Positions 32,701 through 64,000 of a stretch of DNA of 64,000 nt are shown here, in pieces. The notes beneath the pieces are model-generated. The model was not told the DNA's origin, searched no databases, and saw nothing but the letters and a program-made list of their open reading frames with translations. Every line of letters begins with the position of its first letter. The first letter of the stretch is position 1. Source of the stretch: a virus; the IMG/VR virus record IMGVR_UViG_3300026097_000980, positions 1 to 64,000 of that record. One strand, 5' to 3'. The translations under genes were made by a program, and so were the position numbers.

Positions 32701-32765
32701 GGCCAATCCTGTTTTATATGAAGTATTTATTTGAAAATTTTAAAAGCCGAATGTTAAATAAGTTT

Positions 32766-48603: not shown

Positions 48604-48649
48604 ATACTATATTATAGCCTTTTTACAGTTCAGTCAACTAACTCCTGAT

Positions 48650-48655
48650 TAAATA
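48650..48655 (+). promoter_or_regulatory. Late-promoter-like TAAATA heading the radical-SAM island
   Basis: Same hexamer as before structural genes; 21 nt before ATG 48677. Confidence 0.55.
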
Positions 48656-48676
48656 CTTTGTTCGCAAAGGTGTCCA

Positions 48677-49381
48677 ATGAGAATAGTAGCTTTCGGTGAT
48701 AGTTTTACAAATGGCCTTATAAAATTACCTAAAAGATACACACAAGAAGAATCTCATCAAAACAGTTTTGTAAACAAAATGTTTCAGTCTAGTAAAATAT
48801 TTACTGATTATTCAAATTTAGCCGACAACGGTTGTGGTAATAGACAGATAGCATCTAAGATTTATAAATGTTTACTTGAAAAGAAAATCAGCAAGAACGA
48901 TTTTGTATTTATTGGATGGTCTAGTTTGACTAGAACAGCATTATGGGACAACGAATATTATAAAACTCCTGATAACAATGTTGTTGATTATAAACAGTTG
49001 ATTTATGATACAGAATCTAGTATACTTAGTACACACATGATACTGAAATTACAAGGAATCCGACACTGCATGATACAAGCGTTTCATGATTATTCAAGCC
49101 AGACAGACATAAAATATCTGCTAGAAAAGAATATCAATTTCCCGTGTTGGATAAATTTTCAAAAAAACAATAACACCCTTATGGATATATGTATGTTGAG
49201 ATATTTGAGCGAGGCAAAGTTCAAAGATATCAAAAATCATCATAAAGAAAAATATGTTCAGCATACAAAATACCTTGCAGAATGTTATCATCCTAACGAT
49301 GCAGGGCATAGATTAATAGCAGAAACACTGAGACCCATTGCGGAAATATATGCTACTACAGATAAAAGTTTAGAGTATTAA
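48677..49381 (+). CDS. SGNH/GDSL-like protein
   Basis: FGDSFT, NLA..G.GN, HPN..GH. Confidence 0.75.
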   Translation: MRIVAFGDSFTNGLIKLPKRYTQEESHQNSFVNKMFQSSKIFTDYSNLADNGCGNRQIASKIYKCLLEKKISKNDFVFIGWSSLTRTALWDNEYYKTPDNNVVDYKQLIYDTESSILSTHMILKLQGIRHCMIQAFHDYSSQTDIKYLLEKNINFPCWINFQKNNNTLMDICMLRYLSEAKFKDIKNHHKEKYVQHTKYLAECYHPNDAGHRLIAETLRPIAEIYATTDKSLEY

Positions 49382-49389
49382 GGATAGAA

Positions 49390-51381
49390 ATGCAAAGATA
49401 CAAAAAAGAAATTGCCAGAGTAACATTAGTCGAACCCGAATCCGGCGACTACTTAGATCTTTACTTCAGGCTTTATGACATTTCTATCACAAACAAATGG
49501 ATTCATAATTTTAAACAACTAAAATCAGGACCGCATAGCTTCAGAGAAAAAAATGTATTTCTAAGGTCTTACAATCGTAGCCTATTGGATGATATTAACG
49601 AGTGTATAGAAAAAATTAATAACTTTTATGACAGACCTTTAGAATCTATAAACAATCTAACCGAAGAATCGTTAAACTATCTACACGAATGTTATGAAAT
49701 TTACGGTAAAAGACTAAATGAACATTTAGAAAAAAGATGGTGGGATAGCGCATACAAAAAGATTTCCGTAAACGACCCGGAAGCAATGGTCTGGCCTGGT
49801 AGATCATTTAACGAAGATATGCATTTTTCGTTTATCAAATTAAATGAACTCATTCATAAATCGGAATTTGCCGACGAAAGACGTTCTCCAGGAGCAATTG
49901 TTCTCGGCAGTTTCAATAAAAGAACAGACCATATTCTAGAAAGAGACGATTATTTAACAATAACTCCTTTTCTGAATTTCGGAGATTTCTGTCTTGGTTA
50001 CAATACTCTCGGAAAAAATCTTCAACACATAATATTAGATAATGACGAAGATGCTGTGGCCAGAAATGCAATTGTTCCGCAACAAACATGGTCCGATGAG
50101 TTTTATATCCATCTAAAGTCCGACGAAACAAAACCTGATCATCTAATAGGTTATAAAGAAATGTGGGACAATTTAAAAATCAAAGGATTCCAGTTCGGCA
50201 ACTTTATTGCTAATAAAGAAGGATATATCAAACTAGGGGAAATGATCCCTGAGCAAAGAGCGAAACTCTACAAAAACGATCACACTCTTATTGATTTTAA
50301 AAAATACACAGACCTACAAGATATAACATTGATTTCAACCGATGAATACAAAACAGGAGTTCGTTTCCCGGAGTTCAAGAAACCTTATAAGAAACAAGGA
50401 AAAGAGATCGTAGCTGTAGATACTGATAATGTTGTAATGATTACATGGATATTAAATAATATTTGCACCTACAGTTGTAGATATTGTCCTCCAAATTTAC
50501 ACAACGGAAAAAACTACAGATACGAGTGGGAAGATATAGAGCCATTTGTGTCCCATTTACTTAAATTTTATCGAGGAAAGAACATTGAATTTAATTTAAG
50601 TGGTGGCGAACCGACACTTAGTCCCTTTTTTCCTATGCTGGTTAAAAAAATTTACGATAGCGGAGCGTATGTAGGTATAACCACAAATCTCGCAAGAAGT
50701 ACTAGATTTATAAAAGATAATTTTAAATATTTGAAATTTGCGTGTTGTAGCTTCCATCCTTATTACGAATTTCAAGACGAAAAATATAAAGAGTTTTTAG
50801 AGAAAATTAAGGAATGTGCAAACCATTGCCATACAACAGTCCGGGTTATGATGGACCCGTTACACTGGGATCAAACAGTGGAATTTGTAGAAACTCTAAA
50901 AAAATTAAAGTGCTGTAAAGTAGAAGTAGTATATATTGATAATCAGTACGGCAGTACACACAAACAGCTGATTGACATAAGTTATACGCCAGCCCAAATA
51001 GAATATATCAAAAACTTCGAACCTTTTCAAAAATTTGATGCAAAATGGAGTAAATCTGAATTATGGTCGCCAATGCCTACGAAAGGTGATGTAATTTTTT
51101 CCGACGGTTCTAGAGAAGAGTTGGGAACTGCACAAAAATATATTAATAACGGTCAGGCAAACTTTTTCAATTACTCGTGCGATATAGGTAAGAATAGTTT
51201 GTTTATTGGCCCAAATGGTGAGGTCAGAAAAGGAAATTGTTTGGTCGGAGGAAAAATTGGAACTGTTGAGAATTGGAGAGGAATAGACTGGAACGATCTC
51301 AAGCAATCAATAATTTGTAATTCATTGTGCTGCCATTGCGGCGCAGATGTTGTAATCTCCAAAAGGAAACGCAATGCGTAA
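49390..51381 (+). CDS. Radical SAM protein with ~340-aa N-terminal extra domain
   Basis: CTYSCRYC, SGGEPT, SFH, C-terminal CNSLCCHC.AD. Confidence 0.85.
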   Translation: MQRYKKEIARVTLVEPESGDYLDLYFRLYDISITNKWIHNFKQLKSGPHSFREKNVFLRSYNRSLLDDINECIEKINNFYDRPLESINNLTEESLNYLHECYEIYGKRLNEHLEKRWWDSAYKKISVNDPEAMVWPGRSFNEDMHFSFIKLNELIHKSEFADERRSPGAIVLGSFNKRTDHILERDDYLTITPFLNFGDFCLGYNTLGKNLQHIILDNDEDAVARNAIVPQQTWSDEFYIHLKSDETKPDHLIGYKEMWDNLKIKGFQFGNFIANKEGYIKLGEMIPEQRAKLYKNDHTLIDFKKYTDLQDITLISTDEYKTGVRFPEFKKPYKKQGKEIVAVDTDNVVMITWILNNICTYSCRYCPPNLHNGKNYRYEWEDIEPFVSHLLKFYRGKNIEFNLSGGEPTLSPFFPMLVKKIYDSGAYVGITTNLARSTRFIKDNFKYLKFACCSFHPYYEFQDEKYKEFLEKIKECANHCHTTVRVMMDPLHWDQTVEFVETLKKLKCCKVEVVYIDNQYGSTHKQLIDISYTPAQIEYIKNFEPFQKFDAKWSKSELWSPMPTKGDVIFSDGSREELGTAQKYINNGQANFFNYSCDIGKNSLFIGPNGEVRKGNCLVGGKIGTVENWRGIDWNDLKQSIICNSLCCHCGADVVISKRKRNA

Positions 51382-52078
51382 AATTTTAAATTTTGGTTGT
51401 AGTCATACCAACGGTGCAGAGATTGACGAACCGTGGTCGGGAGAAAGACCCGATCTAGCTTATGGCGCTGTTCTTTCAAAGATGATAGATTACAAAGTCG
51501 AGCAGATATGCGGGAATGGTTGGAGTAACCAATGGATAATTAAAAATGCGTTCAATGCGTGTTTAGAATACATTGATAATAAAGATAAGCCGTTTATTCT
51601 CGTCGGATGGACATCAGTTGAACGAATGCCGTTGCAGTTTGCTGGTCAAGGCACAGTTTATCATGCAACAACAAATTTACCCCCAGAACCTAAATATTAT
51701 CCTGTTAGGAATTATGAAAGAATACACAGTACACTTTGGGGTTCTTCTGTTAACAAACCTGAAATGACTGAAATGCGATTATCTAATATATTAGGGTTCC
51801 AATCTTGGTTGAAAGAACATAATTTTCCATTTTTATTTTTCTGGGCCGTTAATAGTGCTGATACTAAAGTGCTAGAAAAATATAGCATGTGTTTTGATCC
51901 TTGTAGATTTTATGAACCAATTCAACACGATGAGTCTTACTGGAGATACTATCTTAATAATTACTATGATAAGTCTAAAAGATGGGCAAAACATGCACCT
52001 GCGGAGTTCCATAGGCACTGGGCACATAAGCTTTATACGTATATTTGCAAACACAAGTTGCTGGATCTAAATGTTTAG
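51374..52078 (+). CDS. SGNH/GDSL-like protein
   Basis: FGCSHT, G.SN, VGWTS..R, C-terminal H..H. Confidence 0.65.
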   Translation: MRKILNFGCSHTNGAEIDEPWSGERPDLAYGAVLSKMIDYKVEQICGNGWSNQWIIKNAFNACLEYIDNKDKPFILVGWTSVERMPLQFAGQGTVYHATTNLPPEPKYYPVRNYERIHSTLWGSSVNKPEMTEMRLSNILGFQSWLKEHNFPFLFFWAVNSADTKVLEKYSMCFDPCRFYEPIQHDESYWRYYLNNYYDKSKRWAKHAPAEFHRHWAHKLYTYICKHKLLDLNV

Positions 52079-53567
52079 CATATCGAAAGGAACATTAAAT
52101 TTAGATCATCCTGCTTGTAAAAGCCAGATTGATTTCTTTGCGGGACAAAATTTTAACAAAGTGAATATTGATAACTTTTGTTCAGGCCACTACGATCATA
52201 GAATTGCCAAGCACTTTTATTTTTCAGTCCACCCGGCAGATCTCCCAATTACAGTTCTTGTATACGGAGAACAAATCCTAAATATACATCCCGGAACTTC
52301 TAGGGTGCTTGCATATTATCTATCTGATAAGAAAAAAATTCCTGCAATATTTTTACAGGTTGGTAGCATGAAAGAATTAGAATTTGCAGAAAATGTTCAA
52401 TCTATTACTGAAAAAAACGAACTTACCTTGGTCAATCAAAACGACAAGCCGAATAAACATTTTTGGCAAATAAATGTTATTGACCAAGAATACTATAAAA
52501 AGATCGAAAACGAAAAACAATTATCAAAAAAGTTTAAAGAGTTTTTTTATAGTTGTTTAGATCAAAACTCTGTAGATACTTTAAAAAAAGAATATCTAAA
52601 AAATAATCAGAAAAAATTCTGGAAACTGTGTTCACAAATTGCTAGAGAAAATTTTAACAAAAAGTTAGCAATTAAACCTCAAAGAACCGGAGCGTGGCAA
52701 TACAACAGTGATTTTCATTGGAATGTATTTTTTAAAAACTATGATGTTTTTTTGGTAGAGATGTTACCGAATGCAATGAGTGAATTCATAGCCCATCCTA
52801 ATGAGATAGAAAGTCAAAGTCGCTGGATTAAAAAATACAAAGATACTGAAAGAAAATTTCCTGAAATTTTTATAAACTACGAGCTAGACGAGTTTGTCAA
52901 AGATTACACAGAAATTTACGATTGTTTAAAATCGGAAAATCATAAAATAGCCGATTTGGTAGACAACAAGCTCTGGATGAACTGTAAAGGATATGAATAT
53001 ATAAAAACCATACAAAGTGTTTATAAACATGGTGGCATTAATTATAGTTCTAGCATACTAACAAACATCTGCGGAGAACGAAACTTTAAGTATCATCCTG
53101 GAAGGCATTTATCGTTTGCCAAGCGATTTATAGGACAACCGGATATTCATTTTCTAACAATTAAAAAGCAGGATCGCGAATGGTTAGATCAGTATGACAA
53201 AGTTAAAATTATAACCCAAATAGAAACCAAGAACCAAATTTTAGAAAACATGCCTAAAGAAATGACAGATGTCAGCACATGGCTTCAGGGAACTTTTCCT
53301 GTATATACGTGGCCGTTTGTGAACGGAGAAATTAAACTGCCTACTACTGAATGGGGAGATTTAAAAGATGACTGCGGCTATACTGTGATAACTAAATCTG
53401 GAAAAGAAGAAAATATGAAAGTGTTTACTGAATACGCAAAAATTTTAAAAAACACTGATTTACAGAATCTGTATAAAGGAAAAAAGAAAAACCATAAAAA
53501 GCTAAATGAAAGATATCTGGGGTTCCTGTTGAACAATCAAGAAGGTGACGAATTTGAAAAAGGTTAA
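52071..53567 (+). CDS. Hypothetical protein with two HPG-R motifs (ParB/Srx-like?)
   Basis: IHPGTSR and YHPGRH. Confidence 0.55.
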   Translation: MFSISKGTLNLDHPACKSQIDFFAGQNFNKVNIDNFCSGHYDHRIAKHFYFSVHPADLPITVLVYGEQILNIHPGTSRVLAYYLSDKKKIPAIFLQVGSMKELEFAENVQSITEKNELTLVNQNDKPNKHFWQINVIDQEYYKKIENEKQLSKKFKEFFYSCLDQNSVDTLKKEYLKNNQKKFWKLCSQIARENFNKKLAIKPQRTGAWQYNSDFHWNVFFKNYDVFLVEMLPNAMSEFIAHPNEIESQSRWIKKYKDTERKFPEIFINYELDEFVKDYTEIYDCLKSENHKIADLVDNKLWMNCKGYEYIKTIQSVYKHGGINYSSSILTNICGERNFKYHPGRHLSFAKRFIGQPDIHFLTIKKQDREWLDQYDKVKIITQIETKNQILENMPKEMTDVSTWLQGTFPVYTWPFVNGEIKLPTTEWGDLKDDCGYTVITKSGKEENMKVFTEYAKILKNTDLQNLYKGKKKNHKKLNERYLGFLLNNQEGDEFEKG

Positions 53568-54519
53568 GTTTGAAAGGGTTAACTTAGAATTAGTCGGCGG
53601 CTGCAATTATACCTGCCAGATGTGTCCTCAAAGTACCGGCAGAGGAAAAGAGTGGACTAAAAAACTGCCTTTCGAATTATTCGAAAATATTTTAGATCAA
53701 TTAGACGGTAATCCATTAATTGGACTACACGGTTCAGGAGAACCTACATTGATTAAAGATCTTCCTAGATACGTTGAAATCTGTAAAAAAAGAAATTATA
53801 AAGTGTTCATTAATACCAACGGTTTTAAATTGCACGGAAAATTTATGGAAGACGTAATTAATGCAGGAATAGATTGGATAAGGTTTAGTGTTGTAGGATA
53901 TAATTCTGAGACTTATAAAGATTGGATGGCGGTAGACAACTTTAATAAAATTGTAGAAAACACCATAGAGACTTCCGAGTATATCAAAATAGTTAATTCG
54001 CACTGCAAACTTTTAAGTTATCATTTAATACTTGACTCTAACAACATAGATTATGAGATTGATCAATATAGAAAAAACTATATAGAGAAAACCGGTACAC
54101 ACGGGTACATATGGAAAATGCATAACTGGAGTGGTAATTACCAGCCGTTATATTTAAGAGATCCGGCAAAGCGTAAAACCTGCGGCAGACCGTGGGCACC
54201 TGATATCACAATCAGGGCCGGAGGCATAGATAAGTTACACGGTGCTGTTGTTCCTTGTTGTCAAACAATGGGTCCTCCTAACGAAGCAAAAAGTGTTCTC
54301 GGACACGTTGAAACTGAAACAATTGACGAAATATGGAACGGACAATTATATCAAGAACTGCGTGATGCACATTCCAAAGGTAATTTTGATTCAATTGACT
54401 ATTGTAAAGACTGCGATCTTTTATATCAAGAAGATGAAAGTTTAATATGGAGTAATGCACCGGGAGCTTTTGACGGCAAGTTAATAGGAACTGACGTAAA
54501 TCTAAAGGATTTTATATGA
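53545..54519 (+). CDS. Radical SAM/SPASM protein (start may be TTG 53554)
   Basis: CNYTCQMC, GSGEPT, CGRPW..VPCC..CKDC. Confidence 0.88.
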   Translation: MTNLKKVKFERVNLELVGGCNYTCQMCPQSTGRGKEWTKKLPFELFENILDQLDGNPLIGLHGSGEPTLIKDLPRYVEICKKRNYKVFINTNGFKLHGKFMEDVINAGIDWIRFSVVGYNSETYKDWMAVDNFNKIVENTIETSEYIKIVNSHCKLLSYHLILDSNNIDYEIDQYRKNYIEKTGTHGYIWKMHNWSGNYQPLYLRDPAKRKTCGRPWAPDITIRAGGIDKLHGAVVPCCQTMGPPNEAKSVLGHVETETIDEIWNGQLYQELRDAHSKGNFDSIDYCKDCDLLYQEDESLIWSNAPGAFDGKLIGTDVNLKDFI

Positions 54520-55517
54520 CAGATTTTTCAAAAATTCCTTTTGAAGATATAATCAAAGTCGGACAGAGAACATTGCTAGATCGTCCATTATTTACTGTTA
54601 GTTGGATTCTTGGTAGATTCTGCAACTACAATTGTAGTTACTGCTGGCCATATGCCAGAAGCTCAACTCCGGATCATTTCGATCTCGATGTTTATCTAAA
54701 AGGAATTGACGAAATTAAACGGCAAGCGAGAAAGAACGGATTCACTGAATTTCACTTTAGTTTTAGTGGAGGTGAGCCCACTGCATACAAACAGTTTAAT
54801 AAAGTGCTAAAACATTATTCTGAAGATGCAGACCCTGAATACCAAAGCTTGCACATGACCACAAACCTTTCTCCTGCAAAAAAATGGTGGGAGAAGTTTG
54901 TAACAGACACATATAAATTACAGAGAAAAAGTATAACAGCAAGTTTTCATGCCGAACATGCAGATGAAACAGAGTTCGGTGATAAATGTCTTATGCTTAT
55001 GGATGCAGGAGTATTTGTAACTATAAATCAAGTTATGGTTCCTGAACTGTTTGACGAATATTATGAAAGATGCCAACGGTTTTTTGCTAGAGGAATCAAT
55101 GTAACGTTAAAGCCTCAAAGCGATCCAACAGCAAGTTATATAGTAGGCGGATATACAGAATATCAGAGAAAGATACTGCAAGAAAATTTTCCGCAAAAAA
55201 TTCCATCGAAATATAAGAGTGATATACCTCTATTACAAATCGAGTTAGAAGATAAATTTTCTAATAAGTTTTACTTAGATCAAGCAGAACGATTTAACGC
55301 TTTTGATTTTAATAAATTCCAAGGTTGGTCTTGTAATTCTGGTTATCAAAGCTGTATAATTAGAAGTAATGAAGTAAAAAGAAGCTATTCATGTCACGAT
55401 GAATCGTTAGGAACACTGACAGACGGATTTGAGTTGTTTGCTAATTCAAAAGTTTGTATTACTCCGTCGTGTGTTAGCAGTGCAGATAGTAAAATACCTA
55501 AGGTTAAACATGTATAA
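54516..55517 (+). CDS. Radical SAM protein
   Basis: CNYNCSYC, SGGEPT, SFH, NKFQGWSC. Confidence 0.88.
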   Translation: MTDFSKIPFEDIIKVGQRTLLDRPLFTVSWILGRFCNYNCSYCWPYARSSTPDHFDLDVYLKGIDEIKRQARKNGFTEFHFSFSGGEPTAYKQFNKVLKHYSEDADPEYQSLHMTTNLSPAKKWWEKFVTDTYKLQRKSITASFHAEHADETEFGDKCLMLMDAGVFVTINQVMVPELFDEYYERCQRFFARGINVTLKPQSDPTASYIVGGYTEYQRKILQENFPQKIPSKYKSDIPLLQIELEDKFSNKFYLDQAERFNAFDFNKFQGWSCNSGYQSCIIRSNEVKRSYSCHDESLGTLTDGFELFANSKVCITPSCVSSADSKIPKVKHV

Positions 55518-56499
55518 ACTAAATGAAATTAAAGAAATACATTTAGAAACAACATCTAAGTGTCAAGCAAGATGTCCTATGTGTCCTCGCCGTTTAAATG
55601 GAGGATCTATTAATCCATTAATAACGCTAGATGAAATTTATCTGGACGATTTTAAAAAATGGTTTCCGGTACATTTTCTTCAAAATTTAGACCGACTGTT
55701 TATGTGTGGAAATCTAGGTGATCCGGTTGTTGCTCAAGATACACTTGAAATTTTTCAATACTTAAGAGAGATTAATCCGGATATTCAATTGAGCATGCAT
55801 ACTAACGGAAGCGCAAGAACCAAAGACTGGTGGCACAAATTAGCACTTGCTGATGTTGAAGTAACCTTTGGCATCGACGGGCTAGAGGATACACACAGTC
55901 TTTACCGCATAAACACAGACTGGGCTACTATTATTAAGAATGCACAATCTTTCATTGATGCAGGCGGGAAAGCAAATTGGCACATGTTAGTGTTTAAACA
56001 TAACGAACATCAGATTGAAAACTGCAAGCAATTAAGTTTAGAGTATGGATTCAAATACTTTAGTATAAAACACACCAGTAGGTTTAAAGAAAATAAGTTG
56101 CACGTGATAGACGATGCTGGTAAAACTGCTTATAAAATTTATCCTACCCAAAAAAGTCTAGACATGATACCTAAGGTAACACAATTCTATACCGATCAAA
56201 GTCCGTGTATTAAGTGTAAGGCTAAACAACAAAAACAAATTTATGTTTCAGCAAACGGAAATATAGCTCCGTGTTGTTGGCTAGATATGCAATACAAATT
56301 ACATATACAAGATACCAGGATAGACTATATGGATAAAATAGAACAGTTTCCTAACCTTAGAGAAATGTCAATTGAAGATATATTTTCCTCTGATTATTTT
56401 AAAAGCATTGAAAAAACTTGGGCAGATGATCCGTTGTTAGAATGTTCAAAACAATGCGGTAGTTTCGATAAATTACAGGAGCAATTCGTTGAAAGTTGA
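55510..56499 (+). CDS. Radical SAM/SPASM-like protein (start MYKLNE)
   Basis: CQARCPMC, GNLGDP, TNGS, PCC, CSKQC. Confidence 0.88.
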   Translation: MYKLNEIKEIHLETTSKCQARCPMCPRRLNGGSINPLITLDEIYLDDFKKWFPVHFLQNLDRLFMCGNLGDPVVAQDTLEIFQYLREINPDIQLSMHTNGSARTKDWWHKLALADVEVTFGIDGLEDTHSLYRINTDWATIIKNAQSFIDAGGKANWHMLVFKHNEHQIENCKQLSLEYGFKYFSIKHTSRFKENKLHVIDDAGKTAYKIYPTQKSLDMIPKVTQFYTDQSPCIKCKAKQQKQIYVSANGNIAPCCWLDMQYKLHIQDTRIDYMDKIEQFPNLREMSIEDIFSSDYFKSIEKTWADDPLLECSKQCGSFDKLQEQFVES

Positions 56500-57094: not shown

Positions 57095-58496
57095 ATTTTG
57101 GTATAACCCTAAGGACACTGAGTTAGGAAAATATCAAAGAGAAATAGAAAGTGTAGCCGGAACACCTTCATTTTGTATATTGCCGTGGATACATTTTGCA
57201 ACCCGTCCGAATGGTGATATGAGATTATGCTGTTCTGCAAATGCAAGTGGAGCAGGCAATGATCATGAAGTAGGACTTGTAAGAATGGAACATGGCCGCC
57301 CTGCTAACTTCGGGCGAGAAACTCCTATGGAAGCATGGAATAATGAATACATGCGCAGTGTGCGCACCACAATGCTTAACGGAGAAATACCTAACAGTTG
57401 CCGCAAATGTTTTGAAGAAGAAAAAGTGGGTGTTGTTAGCAAACGTATATGGGAAACTGGAACTTGGCACAGAGATGGGGTAGATATTCCAGAACTTATT
57501 AGACAAACAACCGAAGACGGCATCGTTCCTGAAGAACTGGTATATTTAGATCTACGACTAGGGCATACCTGCAATATTAAATGTGTTATGTGTTCACCTC
57601 ATGACAGTTCTCGCTGGGTTAAAGATTGGGAACAACTTATTCCAGTTTTACAAGTTGACAATGTAAAACAACAGATGCAGTGGGATCGATCCGAGTTTAA
57701 CAACAAGTGGCACGAGAAAGATACATTTTGGGAAGAAATGTATCGTCAAATACCAAATCTAAAACAGGTATATTTTGCCGGCGGTGAACCTCTAATGATC
57801 AAAGAACACAAAGAGTTCATTGAAGAAATAGTACGTCAGGGATATCAAGACAAGATTTTGTTAAGATATAACTCCAATGGACTATTAGTAGATGAAGATT
57901 TAATTAAGTTATGGAGCAAGTTTAAAAAGGTTAAGTTTGCAGTAAGTATGGATGCAGTTTATGAAAGAGATGAATATATACGCTATCCTACAGATTGGAA
58001 TACTGTTGAAAAAACTCTGAGATTGTTAGACGATACTCCGGATAATATACAAACAAGTTTAGCAACAGCAATACAAATATTCAATGTAAAACACCTACCT
58101 GACTTTATGAAGTGGAAGGTAGAAAGCGGATTTAAAAAACTTAATCTAGGTAACGTACCTGGCGGAGTACAAATGGGCGGCGGCTTAGTAAACATGCATT
58201 TATTGTACATTCCTACATTCTTAAGCATACAAATACTACCAAAAGAAGACAAGCAAGAAGTTCGAGAACTGTATATGGATTTTAAAGACTGGCTCTGGAA
58301 AAACTATAGACAGGATGACGATTTCTGGAAAGTCAATCCTTATGGATGGCGTAGATGGGAAGCAGTAATGAACCATATGGATGCAACTGACAATAGCGAT
58401 CAACTACCAGGATTTAAAGAATATGTGAATAAATTAGATGCTATCCGCGGACTGAATGCAAAATCAGTGTTTCCGGAAATTGCTCATCTTCTCTAA
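57084..58496 (+). CDS. Radical SAM protein with N-terminal twitch/SPASM-like domain
   Basis: CILPW..LCC..CRKC precedes CNIKCVMC, AGGEPL. Confidence 0.88.
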   Translation: MTDKFWYNPKDTELGKYQREIESVAGTPSFCILPWIHFATRPNGDMRLCCSANASGAGNDHEVGLVRMEHGRPANFGRETPMEAWNNEYMRSVRTTMLNGEIPNSCRKCFEEEKVGVVSKRIWETGTWHRDGVDIPELIRQTTEDGIVPEELVYLDLRLGHTCNIKCVMCSPHDSSRWVKDWEQLIPVLQVDNVKQQMQWDRSEFNNKWHEKDTFWEEMYRQIPNLKQVYFAGGEPLMIKEHKEFIEEIVRQGYQDKILLRYNSNGLLVDEDLIKLWSKFKKVKFAVSMDAVYERDEYIRYPTDWNTVEKTLRLLDDTPDNIQTSLATAIQIFNVKHLPDFMKWKVESGFKKLNLGNVPGGVQMGGGLVNMHLLYIPTFLSIQILPKEDKQEVRELYMDFKDWLWKNYRQDDDFWKVNPYGWRRWEAVMNHMDATDNSDQLPGFKEYVNKLDAIRGLNAKSVFPEIAHLL

Positions 58497-59542
58497 ACAA
58501 GCGTTTGAAAAACTTCCCAATCTTTTGCCTTTGGCACACACATTCCGCAACCGCATCTATCATTAGGACAAACAATTGTTTTATCTTTGTGTTCATGTGC
58601 ATACTGTAAGATTGCGTCAGTGTCACTGAGATTTCCTATGGGGCCCCGACCTTCCGAGTGCAGTGCTTTACAAGTTTGGTGATGATAAACTTCGCCAGTC
58701 TGCTGATCTATATGTAAAAAGTAACGATTAACACTGCAAAACCACCCTTTGAAATGAGTATCGATATGGGTAATGTCTTGCCACTGGCCGTTTTTTATAC
58801 CTTTCATACACCTACCTCCACAGCAGGTTCGTCCTAATTCAGTGCCCTGCTTATCAGTTTCATTGGGCGCCGAGATTCCTAGGTAATTAAAATACCATAC
58901 TTGCTGTTCTGGAGAGTAATCATGGCTGGTTCTGCGAGGTGTACCGTCGGTGTCTAAAAACCATCCTTGTCTTGATATGTTACCGTCACCGATCGGTCGG
59001 GGCTGATGCTTTATACCTAGTTCTTTTAACTCGTTACATACCTCTACACATTCATCAAAATAATCAACATGCATCATTACGTTGACTTGTAACCAAATAC
59101 CTTTTTGATATAATAGTCTTATATTTTCCAAAACCTGTTTCTTCAGTTTATCATCTGCTTCGGCATGATAACTCACAGTTACGCCTTCAAATATTTCTGC
59201 AATTCTTTCTGTGTTCTTCGGATGCCACGCTCCGTTAGTAGTTAAACTTAACCTAAACCTGTCTTCGTTATTCTTAATGTATTCAGCAAAATCCCAAAAC
59301 GCAGGATTAACGGTGGGCTCACCTCCAGTAAAATTAATATTCACTAAATGACTATATATCTTAGTGTATTCTTTTACGAACTCAAATGTTTTCATTAGTG
59401 TTTCGTAAGGCTGTGGCTTACTATAATTATCGTGTCTTGTCGCTTCGCAGTATGAGCAATCATAATTACAACGTCTTCCCGTGTCCCAGGTAACCATAAT
59501 TCTTTCTGGATTAGTCAAATCAACCGCATCTATCTTAATCAT
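58493..59542 (-). CDS. Radical SAM protein (start MIKIDAV)
   Basis: CNYDCSYC, TGGEPT, SYH, FKGWFC, CPNDRCGCGMC. Confidence 0.88.
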   Translation of the reverse strand: MIKIDAVDLTNPERIMVTWDTGRRCNYDCSYCEATRHDNYSKPQPYETLMKTFEFVKEYTKIYSHLVNINFTGGEPTVNPAFWDFAEYIKNNEDRFRLSLTTNGAWHPKNTERIAEIFEGVTVSYHAEADDKLKKQVLENIRLLYQKGIWLQVNVMMHVDYFDECVEVCNELKELGIKHQPRPIGDGNISRQGWFLDTDGTPRRTSHDYSPEQQVWYFNYLGISAPNETDKQGTELGRTCCGGRCMKGIKNGQWQDITHIDTHFKGWFCSVNRYFLHIDQQTGEVYHHQTCKALHSEGRGPIGNLSDTDAILQYAHEHKDKTIVCPNDRCGCGMCVPKAKDWEVFQTLV

Positions 59543-60425
59543 GGGTTTCCTTTGAAAGTGGAATATCGGCCGCACATGTGCACCAATTTCTAGTGCAAAC
59601 TATCCATTCTCTAGGTGGCTCAAAACTGCCGTTATAAATATTTCCCAAGCTACCGCCCACTCTGCAAGTAGCGCGATGTACTTCGCCATCCCAGTTAATC
59701 ATCAAGCTTTCAATACCAGCAGAGCACTTCCACCCATTAAATCGATTTAGATGATTTTTAATTATATCGTTGGCATGATAAGTTTTACCCGTATCGTCTA
59801 CACAGTTAGGACGAACTGTAGAGTTTGTAGAAAGTATCCACTCTAAATCATTGCCTTCGTATCTTAAGTCGTCAAACGTGTCGTGATCGCCTTGTGTCCA
59901 CCGTATTCTTCTAACAGCCACGGGTATGTTTTCTTCGTCAAGTTCTTCGTATGCTCGTTTAACAAGATCCATGTGTTCATGATGAGCCATTAAATTAACC
60001 TGAATAGGTTTACCGAACCATTTGCCTACCATGATAATGTTTTGTAAAGAACGTCTCCAGAGATTGTTATCGAAGTGTAAACTGAATACATAATGATTAA
60101 CAGGTTGTTCGCAATACCATCTGCCATCACGAGTTCCGTTTGTTGTTATGTTTATCCAGTCAACTCTTTGATTTAAGTGATCTAACAGTTCTTCGATATT
60201 AGGGTGAACACAAGGCTCTCCACCAGTAAGGCTAACGCGAATAGGTTTGTCTAATTCACAGAGCGCATCAACGGCATCGGTCAACAATTTAATATTTGTG
60301 TGAGGAGAAACATTGTCGTGAATTTCCGAAGGACAGTATGCACAGTCTAAGTTACAACGTTTTCCAATATTCCATTCTACTTTGATAGAATTTTGATGAT
60401 CATAGATACTGGTAAGGCTACGCAT
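59535..60425 (-). CDS. Radical SAM protein
   Basis: CNLDCAYC, TGGEPC, SLH, FNGWKC, CTRNWCTCAAD. Confidence 0.88.
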   Translation of the reverse strand: MRSLTSIYDHQNSIKVEWNIGKRCNLDCAYCPSEIHDNVSPHTNIKLLTDAVDALCELDKPIRVSLTGGEPCVHPNIEELLDHLNQRVDWINITTNGTRDGRWYCEQPVNHYVFSLHFDNNLWRRSLQNIIMVGKWFGKPIQVNLMAHHEHMDLVKRAYEELDEENIPVAVRRIRWTQGDHDTFDDLRYEGNDLEWILSTNSTVRPNCVDDTGKTYHANDIIKNHLNRFNGWKCSAGIESLMINWDGEVHRATCRVGGSLGNIYNGSFEPPREWIVCTRNWCTCAADIPLSKETHD

Positions 60426-61686
60426 ATTTTTTAAACTCTGGATTGATACTAAAAAAATCTTGATTTCGGGTTACATCTAATTTAAGATTAAAATCTATGC
60501 AATCTTGCCAATATTCACTTAAATCATTTGCCTGTAAAAAGTTTATATTATCTTGTATTTGTTGAAGTGTTACCTGCTCTAATAGTTTATGTTGTTGTAC
60601 CAAAGGATATTCTAATACTTCAGTTTTCATTTCCTCTAATCTGTCTACAATTCTTTGTTTTAGTTCTTGTGGTAATGTTTGAGCACTTAATGATCTAGGA
60701 TAATTTACTCGGTGAGAGTAAAACACAATACCCATTTCGTTTATAAAGTAATCGATAACTTTATCAATCTGCATAATATTGTTTGATTGCACAGTAAATG
60801 CACCTACCACTCTACTAACATTAGGAAACGATTTAAATACCTTTATGTTTTCTTCTATTTCCGAAAACTTGCCATTGCCTCTAATATATTCATAAACATC
60901 GTGTATTCCGTCTATGCTTACGTTTACAGCAATGCTTTTAAACTTAGGCCAATAATCGTGTATTGTGCGTCCACCTTTGATGCCTAGTGTTGTTCCGTTA
61001 GTAGCGTATTTTAATTCTATCTGATCGCCATACTGTGCCAGTTTATCGAGAATCTTATAATGATATGGATCCATTAAAGGCTCCCCTCCTGCAAATTCTA
61101 CTCGTCTAAAATACGGCAATAGTTTTTCGAACGAGTCCCACCAGTTATCTGAGTTATCAAAAGGCCCAATATATTGACCCGGAGTGTCAACTAATGCATC
61201 TACTGTGGGAATAAGATAGTTATTTTCTTTTTCGTAATGACTTCTTATCGCTCCCCAATCTTTCCAGCTGGTACTATCGAGAGGGTTACACATGCGACAT
61301 TTTAAATTGCAAAGATTATTAAGCTTAATTTCCATAGTAGGAAATTCAAACGGCATTGTGTAATCGTCGTTTAAAGCGTTTAGTGCGTCTGGGTATAAGT
61401 TGATACGTGCTTCGGGTATAACGCCCGCTGTGTGACGCTGTCGTAAGCTTTCGACACCCTGATCCTCTAGGTCAAAGCACGGTTTACATACATCTGGACG
61501 TTCGCCATTTAGTACCTGCCTGCGAACTTCTCGCATAGTTTCGTTATTCCATGCTTGTTCTAAACTTTCTTTTTGGATCCAGCCGACGGGTTGGCTACGG
61601 CAGCATACTTTGATAGCACCGTCTTCTCGTGTAGCAAGACCTGTAAAAGGATGCATGCAGAATGTGCAACTATCTTTTATATTCAC
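60418..61686 (-). CDS. Radical SAM protein with N-terminal twitch/SPASM-like domain
   Basis: CMHPF..VCC..CKPC precedes CNLKCRMC, AGGEPL; TAAATA 61691-61696. Confidence 0.88.
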   Translation of the reverse strand: MNIKDSCTFCMHPFTGLATREDGAIKVCCRSQPVGWIQKESLEQAWNNETMREVRRQVLNGERPDVCKPCFDLEDQGVESLRQRHTAGVIPEARINLYPDALNALNDDYTMPFEFPTMEIKLNNLCNLKCRMCNPLDSTSWKDWGAIRSHYEKENNYLIPTVDALVDTPGQYIGPFDNSDNWWDSFEKLLPYFRRVEFAGGEPLMDPYHYKILDKLAQYGDQIELKYATNGTTLGIKGGRTIHDYWPKFKSIAVNVSIDGIHDVYEYIRGNGKFSEIEENIKVFKSFPNVSRVVGAFTVQSNNIMQIDKVIDYFINEMGIVFYSHRVNYPRSLSAQTLPQELKQRIVDRLEEMKTEVLEYPLVQQHKLLEQVTLQQIQDNINFLQANDLSEYWQDCIDFNLKLDVTRNQDFFSINPEFKKYA

Positions 61687-61724
61687 AAATTATTTAGTAC
61701 CTGTATTGTTAGATAAGTACGTTT

Positions 61725-62402
61725 ATGATAACACCAGCTGGCTATGTTTGCAACAAAGAAAAGATTGAAAAATTATGCACTTTGTTAGACAATCTGGATT
61801 TTCCACTCTGTTTAAACGAACCATCAGGAAACTTTTTTTATGATCCTTGGATTATTAAAGAAGAATTTAAAAATACAATTTTTAATGAAGTACTGTCGAC
61901 ACTAGAAACTACAACAGGACAAGCAAGAATTTTAAAATTAGAAGCAGGTAGATGTTATAATGTCCATGCAGATATTGATGATAGGTATCATCTAAATTTA
62001 TCTGGAGAAGTTAGTTATCTTGTAGATGTTGATAATGAGCAAATGTTTAGAATGTATACAGACGGAATTTGGTATCAAATGAATGCAGGTAAGAGACACA
62101 GTGCTATAAATTTCGGGAGGGGATATAGGTATCAACTTGTGGTGCGTCATGTATTACATAATCCTGTGTTAAACGATCCTGTCAATGTAAAGATAATTTC
62201 GCATGAACCTACTACAGATGATACTAGATATGTATTTGATAACTATATTAGTTCCTGGTTAAATGAAAGTTGTAAACAACAAAAGATAATGAACTTCGAA
62301 CCTAATGTTAACGAAGTAAAATTCAGTACGGAAAGAAATCACATTGATAGTCTTAAAAAAATTTTACCAGAAACCTTGGAGATGATTTTATATGATCAAT
62401 AA
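61725..62402 (+). CDS. 2OG-Fe(II) oxygenase (Asp/Asn hydroxylase-like)
   Basis: HAD.DDRYH...HSA.N.G...R; TAAGTA 61714-61719. Confidence 0.7.
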   Translation: MITPAGYVCNKEKIEKLCTLLDNLDFPLCLNEPSGNFFYDPWIIKEEFKNTIFNEVLSTLETTTGQARILKLEAGRCYNVHADIDDRYHLNLSGEVSYLVDVDNEQMFRMYTDGIWYQMNAGKRHSAINFGRGYRYQLVVRHVLHNPVLNDPVNVKIISHEPTTDDTRYVFDNYISSWLNESCKQQKIMNFEPNVNEVKFSTERNHIDSLKKILPETLEMILYDQ

Positions 62403-63081
62403 TACAGGCTGGGAGTATGTTCGAAAGTATGTTGACAAAGGTGATAGATTTCAACTTAGCTCGACAAATGTTCTCTATACACCTACAATAAATCCGGAAA
62501 AAACTATGATGTGTATGCATTATATAGTAGACACAAACTATATGATCGGAAGTTGTGTTCCTAGAACAGATGAAATGCTACAATATTGGTTTGAAAGAGA
62601 ATTAGGATATCTCGAATTATTTCAGGGAAAGTCCTGGTGTCCTAACATTTACGATGTAGATTATGAAAACAAAAAAATATTAATAGAATATAATAAAGAG
62701 AGTTTAAATTTTCCAGTCTATGTCGAGGAAAGATCTTTGGATAAAGAATATCCTAATTGGAAAGCAGATCTCTTTAATATTATTAATGAGGTTTATCAAT
62801 TAGGATATTATAAAGCATCAATTTATCCACACTGTTTCTTTTATACAAACGAAGGAAAAATGAAAATGATTGACTACTATGCAACTGTTCCAAGAGACGA
62901 TTCTCTTATTCACAAAAGCATTATCGAACCTATTATAGGAGTCGACTCTGAGCAACGATTTATAGAAGTTAAAAACGGAGAATATTTTGAAATGGCAAAT
63001 CACTTTAAAAACTCTCTTAAAACCTGGATCAAGTGGCCCGGAGATCCTCTTCCGGAATTTTGTGAAAAGATTTTTCAGTAA
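62392..63081 (+). CDS. Protein-kinase-like fold protein (atypical)
   Basis: FERE..YL, P.IYD, ILIEY, KMIDYY in DFG-like position; catalytic-loop Asp not evident. Confidence 0.5.
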   Translation: MINNTGWEYVRKYVDKGDRFQLSSTNVLYTPTINPEKTMMCMHYIVDTNYMIGSCVPRTDEMLQYWFERELGYLELFQGKSWCPNIYDVDYENKKILIEYNKESLNFPVYVEERSLDKEYPNWKADLFNIINEVYQLGYYKASIYPHCFFYTNEGKMKMIDYYATVPRDDSLIHKSIIEPIIGVDSEQRFIEVKNGEYFEMANHFKNSLKTWIKWPGDPLPEFCEKIFQ

Positions 63082-63105
63082 GTTAACGATAAGGGTGTGA
63101 GTATA

Positions 63106-63651
63106 ATGCAAAATTATGTTAATGCTGATTTTTTTAAATTTGAATATGATTGGTCAGGCCTGCTTGATAGTATAAAAGATTTTGAGGGTGTTCCAAATAC
63201 TCCAGATCCAAGTATTTGGAAAATGGAAATTCCTGCTTACAGCGAAATTAAAAAAACTTGGGAAGAAGCTAATTATCCTGATAGTCATATAAAATGGATT
63301 AATTTTTACCCCGGGCAACATTACACAGAAGAACTAGATAAGTTATTGTGCAATCACTTTAACATAGGATATAGAAGATCGTGGATAAGCAAAATAGAAC
63401 CAGGTTATAGTGCTCCGTGGCACTGGGACGTAGAAGACGATCCGGAAGACTACGATGGACCTTTACGTTTGAGTATTTTTATAAATGATTGTGAACCCGG
63501 ACATATTTTCATATTAGGCAAAGAAGATGTTTTTTATAATATGAAATCAGGAGATGGAATTTTTTGGAAAAGATTTAACGAATATCATATTGGCATGAAT
63601 GCCGGCTTAACTTCTAAATATATGTATCATTTAAAAGCAAAAATTATTTAA
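63106..63651 (+). CDS. 2OG-Fe(II) oxygenase-like protein
   Basis: PG..APWHWD...H.G.N.G...K. Confidence 0.7.
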   Translation: MQNYVNADFFKFEYDWSGLLDSIKDFEGVPNTPDPSIWKMEIPAYSEIKKTWEEANYPDSHIKWINFYPGQHYTEELDKLLCNHFNIGYRRSWISKIEPGYSAPWHWDVEDDPEDYDGPLRLSIFINDCEPGHIFILGKEDVFYNMKSGDGIFWKRFNEYHIGMNAGLTSKYMYHLKAKII

Positions 63652-64000
63652 CACTTCTCCATTTTTTATATCTTACATCGTTTATTTCATCTACAAATAT
63701 TAGAGGAATATCAAAATCCGCCTTCAAAATCCAATCTATAGTTTGCACAATTTTGATAGGATCTATTTTTACATCTTCTTCAGGCCCGTACCTTTGAAAT
63801 CCGCTGGTAATAATATGTGTGGTTTTAATTTTCTCTGAAGCAAGACTCCAACTGGTATTTCGTATGTCCAGTTTTTCTTGATGAGTTACAGGATCTACCC
63901 ACGCAAATTCTTCAAACTCTAATACACTGCCGATTGTTATGATATGCCCTTGCGTCCATACGTCAGCAACATCTCGTATTACTCGTTCTTGAAACCCATA
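63644..64000 (-). CDS. SDR-like protein, 5'-partial
   Basis: Hand-translated ...GHIITIGS...HQEK...IKTTHII.SG...IVQTIDWIL...; HxxxK where YxxxK is expected. Confidence 0.45.
   Translation of the reverse strand, partial: YGFQERVIRDVADVWTQGHIITIGSVLEFEEFAWVDPVTHQEKLDIRNTSWSLASEKIKTTHIITSGFQRYGPEEDVKIDPIKIVQTIDWILKADFDIPLIFVDEINDVRYKKWRSVK

Follow-up and report, generated by a model that had tools for sequence, protein, structure and literature searches.

What would a phage do with an island of radical SAM enzymes? The question is raised by the window, a 64,000-nt stretch of an IMG/VR record, whose last 15 kb are packed with enzyme genes. The source is an uncultured aquatic jumbo (giant) phage, of whose genome the 155-kb record represents 42%. 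An earlier note on the window had described a 15-kb island; its start at 48.65 kb holds, but the window ends inside the island, which runs on to ~77.5 kb of the record, giving a total length of ~29 kb. Judged by sequence, it is best described as a conserved, uncharacterised enzyme set rather than a group of housekeeping genes. Our best explanation, held tentatively, is that enzymes of a host-recognition region, expressed late, tailor a sugar or glycan, with substrate and timing as its conjectural parts.

Enzyme content of the island

The eight ORFs of the window reported to carry CxxxCxxC motifs all qualify as radical SAM enzymes, defined here by this motif and a Pfam PF04055 score above the cut-off (34-57 bits against 29.5). 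The 663-aa enzyme of family A at 49390-51381 (+) combines a 340-aa N-terminal domain of unassigned kind, a radical SAM core (34.4 bits, residues 354-500) and a C-terminal SPASM/twitch-like Cys motif. Its paralogues across its full C-terminal half are 54516-55517 (+, 333 aa, 46 bits) and, on the minus strand, the variable member 58493-59575 (360 aa, 56.3 bits) and 59535-60425 (296 aa, 41.4 bits). SPASM domains mark 53545-54519 (+, 324 aa; PF04055 56.9 bits, C-terminal PF13186 44.7 bits) and 55507-56499 (+, 330 aa; PF04055 34 bits, SPASM 31.5 bits, phrog_21308 at 1e-27). An N-terminal twitch characterises 57084-58496 (+, 470 aa) and 60418-61686 (-, 422 aa), which score 391 and 334 bits with NF033640 (cut-off 170). 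This function-less subfamily is the only NCBIfam model passed, and no member reaches the cut-off for QueE, NrdG or MoaA, as the earlier note had expected, or for any other named enzyme. Nor does any member reach the cut-off of a characterised sugar-modifying radical SAM family, the matches to BtrN and BlsE reflecting only the generic core.

The remaining genes of the window are largely enzymes as well, with overlapping start and stop codons as previously described. Two SGNH proteins had been proposed. One, 51374-52078 (+, 234 aa), has an SGNH-like N-terminus (FGCSHTNG) and is a DUF6071 protein above the cut-off (PF19547, 35.6 bits); the other, 48677-49381 (+, 234 aa), displays the SGNH/GDSL motifs FGDSFTNG ... 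DAGH but stays below the Lipase_GDSL cut-off (17.8 bits). The supposed SDR-like ORF, 52071-53567 (+, 498 aa, function unassigned), is a near-orphan with one other cluster only among 5.8 billion sequences (68% identity); it lacks Pfam or PHROG matches, and a sub-threshold Epimerase score (16.7 bits) is all that is left of the proposed affinity. In contrast, the methyltransferase-like 56489-57094 (+, 201 aa, AF2 pLDDT 90.8) does fold as a class I SAM-dependent methyltransferase, and is akin to methyltransferases of small molecules and oligosaccharides, among them DnrK and NodS (Foldseek E 5e-11; PhzM is also matched).

The two proposed 2-oxoglutarate oxygenases keep a conserved HxD...H triad. 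In the Asp/Asn-hydroxylase-like cupin 61725-62402 (+, 225 aa) it is H81-x-D83...H125, conserved in 30 sequences, and its ESM Atlas structure matches viral clusters (TM 0.94), some members of which carry PF05118. In the cupin-like 63097-63651 (+, 184 aa, without Pfam match), a paralogue of 64182-64706 and 64706-65221, it is H109-x-D111...H164. Between them, 62392-63081 (+, 229 aa, AF2 pLDDT 89.9), a paralogue of 69171-69860, has the protein-kinase-like fold suggested before, with Foldseek matches to Bud32, RIO and WbdD (E ~1e-6) and to CurKC kinases; the catalytic Asp and the beta3 Lys normally present, however, are not conserved, and only Y29, E70 and K141 are invariant. The last gene, a 181-aa minus-strand ORF without assigned function (63644-64189), is represented by its 3' part (63644-64000).

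Beyond the window, two radical SAM genes, ~6 more oxygenases and two fibre-like genes follow. The whole island thereby comprises ten radical SAM enzymes (two with N-terminal twitch, two Pfam-SPASM, four 'family A' SPASM/twitch-like, one that binds B12 and one bearing a Tes/HMPTM-type zinc ribbon), some ten cupin oxygenases of the Fe(II)/2-oxoglutarate type, the two esterase-like SGNH proteins, the class I methyltransferase along with another methyltransferase-like protein, and two each of atypical kinase-fold and fibre-like proteins. Of the fibre-like proteins, 73640-74977 has an Mtd_N-like N-terminus, and 70989-71558 shares 40% identity with its C-terminal domain. Another fibre gene, encoding a tail fibre of 2419 aa, is located 16 kb upstream.

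Promoter-like motifs and timing

The sequence bears out all three motif positions given earlier. TAAATA at 48650-48655 (+) precedes the first gene of the plus-strand operon by 27 nt and is kept as TGATTAAATA in the relative L172. A 39-nt divergent control region (61691-61719) holds TAAGTA on the plus strand (61714-61719) and the complement of TAAATA at 61691-61696, so that this copy reads on the minus strand; the pair is kept in L030, L073 and L049. The occurrence of TAAATA upstream of genes is beyond chance: 30% of all copies fall within the 60 nt ahead of genes, a space that accounts for 4.4% of the sequence, against 4-9% for 13 other hexamers of equal composition and without overlap with it (ATAAAT, which does overlap, reaches 18%). 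TAAATA also stands ahead of the 2419-aa tail-fibre gene and of the lysis cassette, in places likewise kept in relatives.

The motif resembles the T4 late promoter, TATAAATA, and L049 carries precisely this sequence. Transcription of the island's units seems to start at TAAATA promoters of T4-late-like type. We call their expression late solely because of this analogy, and a gp55-like sigma factor was not found in the 155 kb (42% of the genome).

Relatives and sugar genes

The N-terminal-twitch enzyme 57084 has an 80-92% identical copy in 160 viral contigs, 80 of which were compared for gene content. The same gene set recurs across these 80 contigs, which confirms the expected co-occurrence in relatives. 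The genes 54516, 55429, 56489, 57084, 59535 and 60418 are each found in 76-80 loci, and 61725, 62392, 63097, 65795, 69171, 69838, 71555 and 72248 in many. In detail, 60418-61686 is present in 80/80 (median identity 71%), 56489-57094 in 79, 54516-55517 in 78, 59535-60425 in 76 (median 52%) and 55507-56499 in 76, a count that may include paralogue cross-matches. About one in three related loci has a true orthologue of 58493-59575 (50-72% identity), and 53545-54519 is present in 7/80.

A core of four genes (54516, 55429, 56489 and 57084), encoding two SPASM-type enzymes, the class I methyltransferase and the N-twitch enzyme, is also present in chromosomes of Bdellovibrionota, which are predatory bacteria, at 31-54% identity (46-54% for 54516-55517, 36-45% for 55507-56499). 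There, the methyltransferase corresponds to the C-terminal domain of larger proteins (271-454 aa). In a tree, the 57084 enzyme is sister to a Bdellovibrionota clade.

In phages and bacteria alike, these enzymes are accompanied by sugar genes. Six related phage loci, where radical SAM genes account for 49 of 147 ORFs, also contain a UDP-Glc/GDP-Man dehydrogenase, an NAD epimerase, an aminotransferase, a PfkB kinase and a Man-6-P-isomerase-type cupin. Four phage lineages have a nucleotide-sugar 6-dehydrogenase upstream of the core. It immediately precedes the core on the same strand, its stop overlapping the next start in L034 and 18 nt intervening in L030; the other two lineages are L025 and L072. 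A divergent GT2-like family with a DxD motif ('VDGD'; >6,398 homologues, some with Pfam GT2 matches) adjoins the core in 58/80 phage loci and in eight bacterial loci (seven Bdellovibrionota and the cyanobacterial L155). Between or directly beside the core members of Bdellovibrionota there is a NodU/CmcH carbamoyltransferase (L094) or two GT2 genes (L102). Three whole genomes have GT2 genes within or adjoining their N-twitch arrays; a single 24-kb array of one of them (4.1 Mb) contains 4 of its 20 GT2 genes. SIS and GH114 are further sugar genes of these contexts.

This context is that of relatives and bacteria. In the 155 kb of the phage itself (42% of the genome), searches for GT2, GT1/4, GT8 and the DxD family are all negative, so that no glycosyltransferase is recognisable, and a nucleotide-sugar dehydrogenase is absent as well. 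Because the same enzymes stand next to sugar-building genes in relatives and in predatory bacteria, an unusual sugar decoration is most likely what the island edits. The earlier note had listed virion proteins or glycans, packaged DNA and a small metabolite as targets; the context favours sugars or glycans and points away from DNA or a RiPP. The observations of that note are confirmed, and its interpretation is partly supported.

A sugar would accordingly be tailored as a nucleotide-sugar or within a glycan, with virion fibres or the envelope of the infected cell as possible destinations. The radical SAM enzymes might perform oxygen-independent C-H chemistry on it (epimerisation, dehydrogenation, deoxygenation, decarboxylation or C-methylation), while the methyltransferase would methylate it, the cupins hydroxylate it, and the SGNH proteins attach acyl groups or take them off. 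We infer substrate, individual reactions, target and timing alike.

Competing explanations and cassette exchange

SPASM/twitch enzymes and Asp/Asn hydroxylases are known chiefly from peptide and protein modification. The island could act on proteins directly, with SPASM/twitch enzymes installing cross-links, epimerised residues or formylglycine-type changes and cupins hydroxylating residues of fibre or host proteins, without a dedicated short precursor. SPASM/twitch domains or Cys motifs in 8/8 enzymes of the window, HxD...H in at least four island cupin families (PF05118 Asp/Asn hydroxylase-like), the likeness of the kinase-fold proteins to the kinase domain of lanthipeptide synthetases, the fibre-like genes within the island and the motif of late type are in line with this. 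We nevertheless consider it unlikely. No precursor peptide gene is seen in the island, as noted before, and the gene packing leaves no room for one; no enzyme has an RRE-type leader-binding domain ahead of its core; shared N-terminal tags or collagen-like repeats are absent from the 155 kb; a RiPP cyclopropyl synthase, nearest among solved structures, is matched over the generic core only; and the contexts are UGDH, GT2, carbamoyltransferase, SIS and GH114 rather than peptidases or exporters. Remodelling of lipids or lipid A, or synthesis of a diffusible antibiotic-like or cofactor-like small molecule, appears rather improbable. It would suit 68082-69143, with its HMPTM zinc ribbon and a first part matching the tetraether lipid synthase Tes (98 bits), and the B12-radical SAM enzyme 66598-68082, nearest to PhpK and to ladderane-lipid and hopanoid enzymes, but all these matches are far below the family cut-offs. 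SGNH proteins are frequently lipases or acyl-esterases, PF05118 also covers the lipid A hydroxylase LpxO, and an LPG-synthase-type membrane protein adjoins one bacterial array. The recurrent partners, however, are GT2-like proteins and the nucleotide-sugar dehydrogenase, and Pfam tallies lack acyl-carrier, polyketide, NRPS or export genes. Hypermodification of phage DNA or nucleotides is very improbable, even though known thymidine hypermodification pathways involve kinase-fold proteins and radical SAM enzymes, relatives possess QueC, and viperin-type models are the weak best match of several members. These matches (24-54 bits) fall far short of the 180-bit cut-off, the kinase-fold proteins, in which the catalytic Asp is missing, are no P-loop 5-hmdU kinases, the island has no DNA glycosylase, transferase or DpdA-type gene, and its neighbours are fibre and sugar genes, not replication genes. 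A small molecule has a published parallel in cyanophage S-SCSM2R, whose trio of radical SAM, aminotransferase and amidinotransferase was interpreted as 'antibiotic synthesis' genes (PMC12801897).

The island may also serve no single pathway, being a hyperplastic dump of independent accessory enzymes gained and lost as cassettes. The close relative L172 (68-85% identical) keeps the first operon (48677-57094), while 57084-61686 and the right-hand genes are missing from it, which indicates that the island is made of swappable cassettes; with a whole cassette lost, its genes need not form one pathway. Furthermore, 48677-53567 is absent from 80/80 loci (a homologue of 48677-49381 occurs only in L172/L173, at 76% identity), gene order and orientation are shuffled between lineages, and the tree requires at least nine switches between phages and bacteria. 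Against such a dump stand six to fourteen families that stay together through these rearrangements, the core kept across the phage-bacterium divide, the translational coupling of the genes and the high identity of 57084 across 160 loci, and we find it doubtful. The single pathway of the earlier note is probably not a fixed one. Islands of a similar kind, without assigned function, are already in the literature. Multi-radical-SAM modules of phages are described there as interchangeable and non-essential (PMC2853527, PMC7029224), as a collection of independent enzymes would be; in favour of sugar tailoring, host-recognition clusters of pelagimyophages bring together fibres, glycosyltransferases and radical SAM cassettes (PMC7029224).

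Radical SAM enzymes and associated proteins of the island

The eight CxxxCxxC radical-SAM ORFs that the earlier note had recognised by eye between 49.4 and 61.7 kb all score above the Pfam PF04055 cut-off. Together with two genes located beyond the window, one for a B12-binding radical SAM enzyme (66598-68082) and one whose radical SAM product bears an HMPTM/Tes-type zinc ribbon (68082-69143), they reach 34-59 bits against a cut-off of 29.5 bits, and all display the CxxxCxxC motif. Two of the eight, 57084-58496 (+) and 60418-61686 (-), are full-length members of NF033640 (N_Twi_rSAM) with 391 and 334 bits, respectively (cut-off 170), and the alignment of 57084 covers positions 2-397 of 398. 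As is characteristic of this family, their twitch Fe-S domain lies N-terminal to the catalytic core: conserved N-terminal cysteines precede CN.KC..C in both enzymes, and the SPASM profile PF13186 (cut-off 21.5 bits) likewise matches their N-termini (24.1 bits in 57084, 30.7 bits in 60418). NF033640 has no assigned reaction, and membership therefore says nothing on function. The eight remaining radical SAM genes score 20-62 bits with NF033640, below its cut-off. SPASM domains are C-terminal in 53545 (44.7 bits) and in the core gene 55507, also named 55429 (31.5 bits), and the radical SAM motif of these C-terminal-SPASM types begins 20-40 residues from the N-terminus. A paralogous group (54516, 58493, 59535 and the C-terminal half of 49390) shows a C-terminal SPASM/twitch-like cysteine pattern by eye, to which no Pfam profile matches.

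The impression that none of these proteins resembles QueE, NrdG or MoaA is borne out by best scores of 18-98 bits against NCBIfam equivalog cut-offs of 131-850. No radical SAM member exceeds the NCBIfam cut-off of the named enzymes, which besides these three included viperin, anSME, PqqE, Tes, PhpK, BlsE and others. Searches for shared N-terminal tags and collagen-like repeats found none. An intein or intron in homologues of 57084 was considered and rejected, the longer DNA matches being a weak match to the adjacent paralogue joined on. The whole record holds 11 radical SAM matches; the eleventh gene, 16259-17293 (-), lies outside the island, is of phrog_13987/1802 type and has a weak QueE-like match.

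Several other proteins of the island hold up as first described. The methyltransferase-like protein 56489-57094 has a class I methyltransferase fold (pLDDT 90.8; Foldseek E 5e-11 to DnrK, NodS and PhzM) with conserved G58-G59-W60-x-G62 and D82-x-D84, and by fold and motifs is a predicted class I SAM-dependent methyltransferase. The kinase-like ORF 62392-63081 has a protein-kinase-like fold (pLDDT 89.9), in a family whose only invariant residues are Y29, E70 (alphaC-type) and K141; a conserved catalytic Asp or beta3 Lys is lacking, and the Asp of the DFG position is Asn in the subfamily of its paralogue 69171-69860, the second kinase-fold protein of the island. Both presumed 2OG-oxygenases, the Asp/Asn-hydroxylase-like cupin 61725-62402 and 63097-63651, keep HxD...H, an iron triad conserved throughout the families of 61725, 63097, 65795 and 71555. 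Neither 61725 nor 65795 has a Pfam match, PF05118 being borne by their ESM Atlas neighbours. Of the two SGNH-like proteins, 48677-49381 has the GDS and DxxH (DAGH) motifs with a sub-threshold GDSL score (17.8 bits, cut-off 23.6), and 51374-52078 passes DUF6071 (35.6 bits, cut-off 27) with GCSH where GDSL is expected. For the SDR-like ORF, nothing stronger was found than an Epimerase match of 16.7 bits within 52071-53567, a protein whose homologue search returned one further cluster only. Overlapping starts and stops are indeed seen in the island genes; intergenic gaps within the island are at most 40 nt, promoter regions excepted, and a RiPP precursor was again not seen.

The enzyme-rich stretch spans 48.65 to ~77.5 kb of a linear IMG/VR record of 155,508 bp with a completeness of 42% (CheckV). 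Because homologues of the island protein 72248 sit on contigs of 345-358 kb, the phage is probably a jumbo phage with a genome of ~350 kb. Upstream of the island, the window encodes a tail-fibre protein of 2419 aa (25447-32706) as well as a Lon-like protease and a cytidylyltransferase fusion protein. An N-terminal cytidylyltransferase domain (PHROG 3041/395; PF01467 24.8 bits) is borne by the 866-aa protein 3568-6168 (-), 43 kb from the island, which could make an activated sugar or alditol. Beyond the window the island continues with two cupin paralogues (64182-64706, 64706-65221), a hydroxylase-like protein recognised through ESM Atlas (65795-66610), two PF05118 hydroxylases (70394-70987, at 22.2 bits slightly under the cut-off of 22.6; 71555-72208, 56.2 bits), a methyltransferase-like protein of 466 aa (72248-73648), for which a homologue search returned unnamed proteins only, a fibre-like protein with an Mtd_N-type N-terminus (73640-74977) and two 2OG-FeII_Oxy_5 proteins (75017-75580, 76876-77502). 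The last 200 residues of the fibre-like protein, its C-terminal part, recur as a copy of 40% identity in a 189-aa ORF (70989-71558), which may be a spare receptor-binding tip. Directly beyond the island, 78234-78941 (-) encodes an SdhB/FrdB-like iron-sulfur protein (Fer2_3 E 2.6e-29 plus a 4Fe-4S dicluster); a flavoprotein partner was not noticed nearby.

A late-type motif ahead of the island genes

The TAAATA copies reported at 48650-48655 (+) and 61691-61696 (-), as well as TAAGTA at 61714-61719 (+), are present at these positions, and the same TAAATA/TAAGTA pair flanks the next divergent junction (69143-69171). Over the whole record, 30% of TAAATA copies lie at most 60 nt upstream of a gene and in its orientation, a placement that makes up 4.4% of the sequence. 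When hexamers of the same composition are placed by the same test, the overlapping ATAAAT reaches 18% and 13 others 4-9%. In all, it stands ahead of 47 genes, among which are the giant fibre gene and the lysis cassette. Relatives keep it at homologous sites: L172, a contig of a close relative, has TGATTAAATA, and in the related phage locus L049 the T4 late consensus is complete (TATAAATA). Taken together, this placement and conservation support TAAATA, by analogy, as a putative T4-late-like promoter. Searches of the record for T4 gp55 and Gp23 gave no match, which is uninformative in a 42% fragment; a sigma-70 and terminator scan of 46-64 kb scored about as many sites as in shuffled sequence, none of them a clear one between genes.

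In at least 14 genes TAAATA/TAAGTA stands 9-13 nt ahead of the start codon. Such short spacings occur in the window at 60418-61725 and elsewhere in the record at 69143-69171, 72208-72248, 95853-97553 and 105845-107647; in L049, the full TATAAATA lies 5 nt ahead of the ATG. If the motif is a T4-type late -10 element, the mRNAs of these genes would be leaderless or nearly so. The first island operon is preceded by a 204-nt gap (48489-48640 within it), and both gap and sequence are kept in L172.

Cassettes and sugar genes in phages and Bdellovibrionota

The earlier note had proposed gene-neighbourhood conservation in related phages as a check. The same families indeed recur, with varying order and orientation. 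A scan of IMG/VR yielded 160 loci with a homologue of 57084 (80-92% identical), 80 of which were compared for gene content. The genes 54516, 55429, 56489, 57084, 59535 and 60418 are each found in 76-80 of these 80 loci, and 61725, 62392, 63097, 65795, 69171, 69838, 71555 and 72248 recur in many of them; radical SAM genes account for 49 of the 147 ORFs in six related loci. By contrast, no homologue of 48677-53567 occurs in any of the 80 loci. Homologues of this stretch were found only in L172 and L173, two contigs of one closer relative. Left flank, promoter and the operon from 48677 to 56489 are conserved in both at 61-85% identity; 57084-61686 and the genes to the right of it are absent. The island is thus a mosaic of cassettes, and the loss of a cassette in a close relative is newly demonstrated here. 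Cultured phages offer little for comparison: the island has no megablast match among 50,697 cultured phage records, and tblastn of three core enzymes returned remote matches only (22-29% identity), in RsoM2USA, Vibrio K566/K567, Campylobacter CP220, F379 and CP21, and Pelagibacter phage Mosig.

Sugar genes accompany the core of 54516, 55507, 56489 and 57084 in relatives. In four phage lineages (L034, L030, L025 and L072), the core is immediately preceded by a co-oriented gene for a UDP-glucose/GDP-mannose 6-dehydrogenase; the stop of this gene overlaps the next start in L034, and in L030 there are 18 nt between it and the core. Genes of NAD epimerase, aminotransferase, PfkB kinase and Man-6-P-isomerase type are also present in relatives. 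Next to the core, 58 of 80 phage loci and eight bacterial loci (seven Bdellovibrionota and the cyanobacterial L155) encode a protein of a family with a conserved 'VDGD' DxD motif. These proteins (e.g., L033:6704-7384) share 'AKRVHGV...VDGD...YGNGG.K...FRE.VK' in the family alignment A8, are mostly tandem-fused (~530 aa) and have more than 6,398 metagenomic homologues, of which 7 of the 120 listed bear a precomputed GT2-type Pfam assignment (PF00535 or PF13641). We read the family, from its sequence, as putative divergent GT2-like transferases. Profile searches of PDB sequences with this family and with those of 56489 and 72248 gave nothing significant.

The 155-kb record itself (42% complete) was negative for GT2, GT1/4, GT8, the DxD family and nucleotide-sugar dehydrogenase. 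It is a new observation that this phage, within a record of that completeness, lacks the transferase and the dehydrogenase that go with the core elsewhere: the DxD gene, a core neighbour in the next-closest relative L013, is missing in this lineage, and the orphan-like 48677-53567 is present instead. A hidden glycosyltransferase was also sought and none identified: aligned by hhalign, the DxD family showed no relation to 52071, to the N-terminal domain of 49390 or to the 72248 family.

Among bacteria, the N-twitch profile, run against a single genome of each GTDB species, matched at least 78 loci, and the matches listed, contigs of 0.5-3 Mb included, are overwhelmingly Bdellovibrionota. Above its cut-off, NF033640 was detected in 26 of 121 sampled Bdellovibrionota genomes and in none of 14 controls. 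The core genes 54516, 55429, 56489 and 57084 co-occur there at 31-54% identity. This sharing of a four-gene core by phages and Bdellovibrionota, with expansion of the family in the latter, is likewise new. At least 17 N-twitch copies reside on one Bdellovibrionota chromosome of 1.9 Mb, and tandem arrays of 5-7 paralogues each are found in G002, the genome of locus L129 (C1:792-803 kb and 1068-1092 kb), in G001 (C3:27-47 kb) and in G003 (C25:29-53 kb). Sugar genes occur here too. A NodU/CmcH carbamoyltransferase gene lies between core genes in two loci (L094 and L095), and in L102 two GT2 genes directly follow the core and are succeeded by further N-twitch genes. The 124 ORFs of eight bacterial loci comprise 40 radical SAM, four GT2, two carbamoyltransferase, two GH114 and two SIS genes. 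GT2 genes lie inside or beside N-twitch arrays in three whole genomes, and in one genome of 4.1 Mb a single 24-kb array holds 4 of 20 GT2 genes. In a midpoint-rooted tree by the quick method FastTree, with a biased bacterial sample drawn from the matches listed only, the phage 57084 clade is sister to a Bdellovibrionota clade and nested within the wider Bdellovibrionota diversity, and at least nine switches between phage and bacterium are needed.

Substrate, role and comparison with known systems

Because of these sugar-gene contexts in phage relatives and in bacteria, we favour a sugar or glycan as the substrate over a peptide, DNA or lipid; and given the fibre-like genes and the late-type motif, we would place its role in the part of the phage that serves host recognition. 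The main weakness of a sugar substrate is that the record contains no recognisable glycosyltransferase or nucleotide-sugar enzyme. Modification of proteins keeps real weight: it would suit the SPASM/twitch enzymes, the cupins of Asp/Asn-hydroxylase type, whose iron triads are intact, and a kinase fold that is also found in lanthipeptide synthetases. RiPP maturases (e.g., cyclopropyl synthase 8VPO, SkfB and YydG) have the SPASM/twitch architecture in common with these enzymes, and among solved structures the N-twitch profile matches 8VPO best (E 5e-10). However, the island differs from RiPP systems in having no precursor peptide, peptidase, exporter or apparent RRE domain, and in a gene context of sugar genes.

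A lipid or small-molecule product likewise keeps weight, given the Tes-like and the B12 radical SAM enzymes, the SGNH proteins and the relatives of LpxO type. That the enzymes do not form a single pathway at all is supported by the loss of a cassette in the close relative. Hypermodification of DNA is the least supported of these explanations. Sugar tailoring has parallels in natural-product pathways, where BtrN and BlsE, and further DesII, AprD4 and GenK, are radical SAM enzymes of this kind. The logic we propose is alike, i.e., twitch/SPASM or B12 radical SAM enzymes acting on a sugar beside methyltransferases, dehydrogenases and glycosyltransferases, and there are weak profile matches to BtrN and cytosylglucuronate decarboxylase. 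The similarity goes no further, however, than the core common to the superfamily (E 1e-4 to 1e-5; 19 bits with the BlsE model of NCBIfam, cut-off 400), and the phage N-twitch family differs in its N-terminal auxiliary domain.

The mosaic structure of the island matches both the published host recognition cluster (HRC) of pelagimyophages and cyanomyophages (PMC7029224) and the swappable module of Campylobacter phages CP220 and CPt10 (PMC2853527). The HRC is a GT8-rich region between VrlC and gp14 in T4-like genomes of ~150 kb (Zaragoza-Solas et al. 2020, PMC7029224). Tail-fibre genes stand among accessory enzymes in this large, non-syntenic island of big aquatic myophages (PMC7029224); the present island likewise has fibre-like genes, gains and loses cassettes and shows late-type signals. 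In contrast to the HRC, our record covers a part of a phage that is much larger (42% at 155 kb; relatives on 345-358-kb contigs), Gp23, GT8, GT2 and GT4 were not found in these 155 kb of 42% completeness, and radical SAM and cupin genes are far more numerous. The group II phages CP220 and CPt10 possess 11-12 radical SAM genes, a swappable five-gene module among them, and these genes were judged non-essential (Timms et al. 2010, PMC2853527). A CP220 protein shares 29% identity with our 55429, and a CP21 protein 23% with 54516. This homology is remote only, and the Campylobacter phages differ in lacking an N-twitch orthologue, in modules that carry a glycine amidinotransferase, not seen in this island, and in a microaerophilic gut host and habitat.

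A wider and distinctly tentative idea, which we hold to be rather improbable as a whole, is that aquatic jumbo phages and predatory Bdellovibrionota share an undescribed radical-SAM sugar-editing toolkit, make novel sugars for their own surface and swap the cassettes between them. Its core would consist of the N-twitch enzyme, SPASM-type enzymes and the methyltransferase, in 10-17 or more copies per genome, and would produce sugars new to glycobiology through oxygen-independent C-H chemistry. The edited sugars, shown on phage fibres or the predator envelope, would serve recognition or evasion of host or prey, and exchange of cassettes between phage and bacterium would diversify the sugar coat.

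Radical SAM enzymes of families without a known reaction make up a third of the genes in these islands, and the families are abundant (more than 200 metagenomic homologues for 72248, more than 6,000 for the DxD family). If these enzymes edit sugars, they would represent a large untapped C-H functionalising chemistry, and the recognition of hosts by phages in oceans and lakes would have a further layer, so far unstudied. That Bdellovibrionota share these genes is also of practical value: the phages are uncultured, and Bdellovibrionota carry N-twitch copies (up to 17 or more per genome) beside glycosyltransferases. Some members of this group are culturable and genetically tractable.

The N-twitch genes of three other bacterial assemblies, a Flavobacteriaceae MAG (L148), a Pelagibacterales MAG (L153) and a Fischerella MAG (L155), group with the phage copies in the tree, and these may be either mis-binned phage contigs or hints at hosts. 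The dehydrogenase of L148 is 58-60% identical to the phage one.
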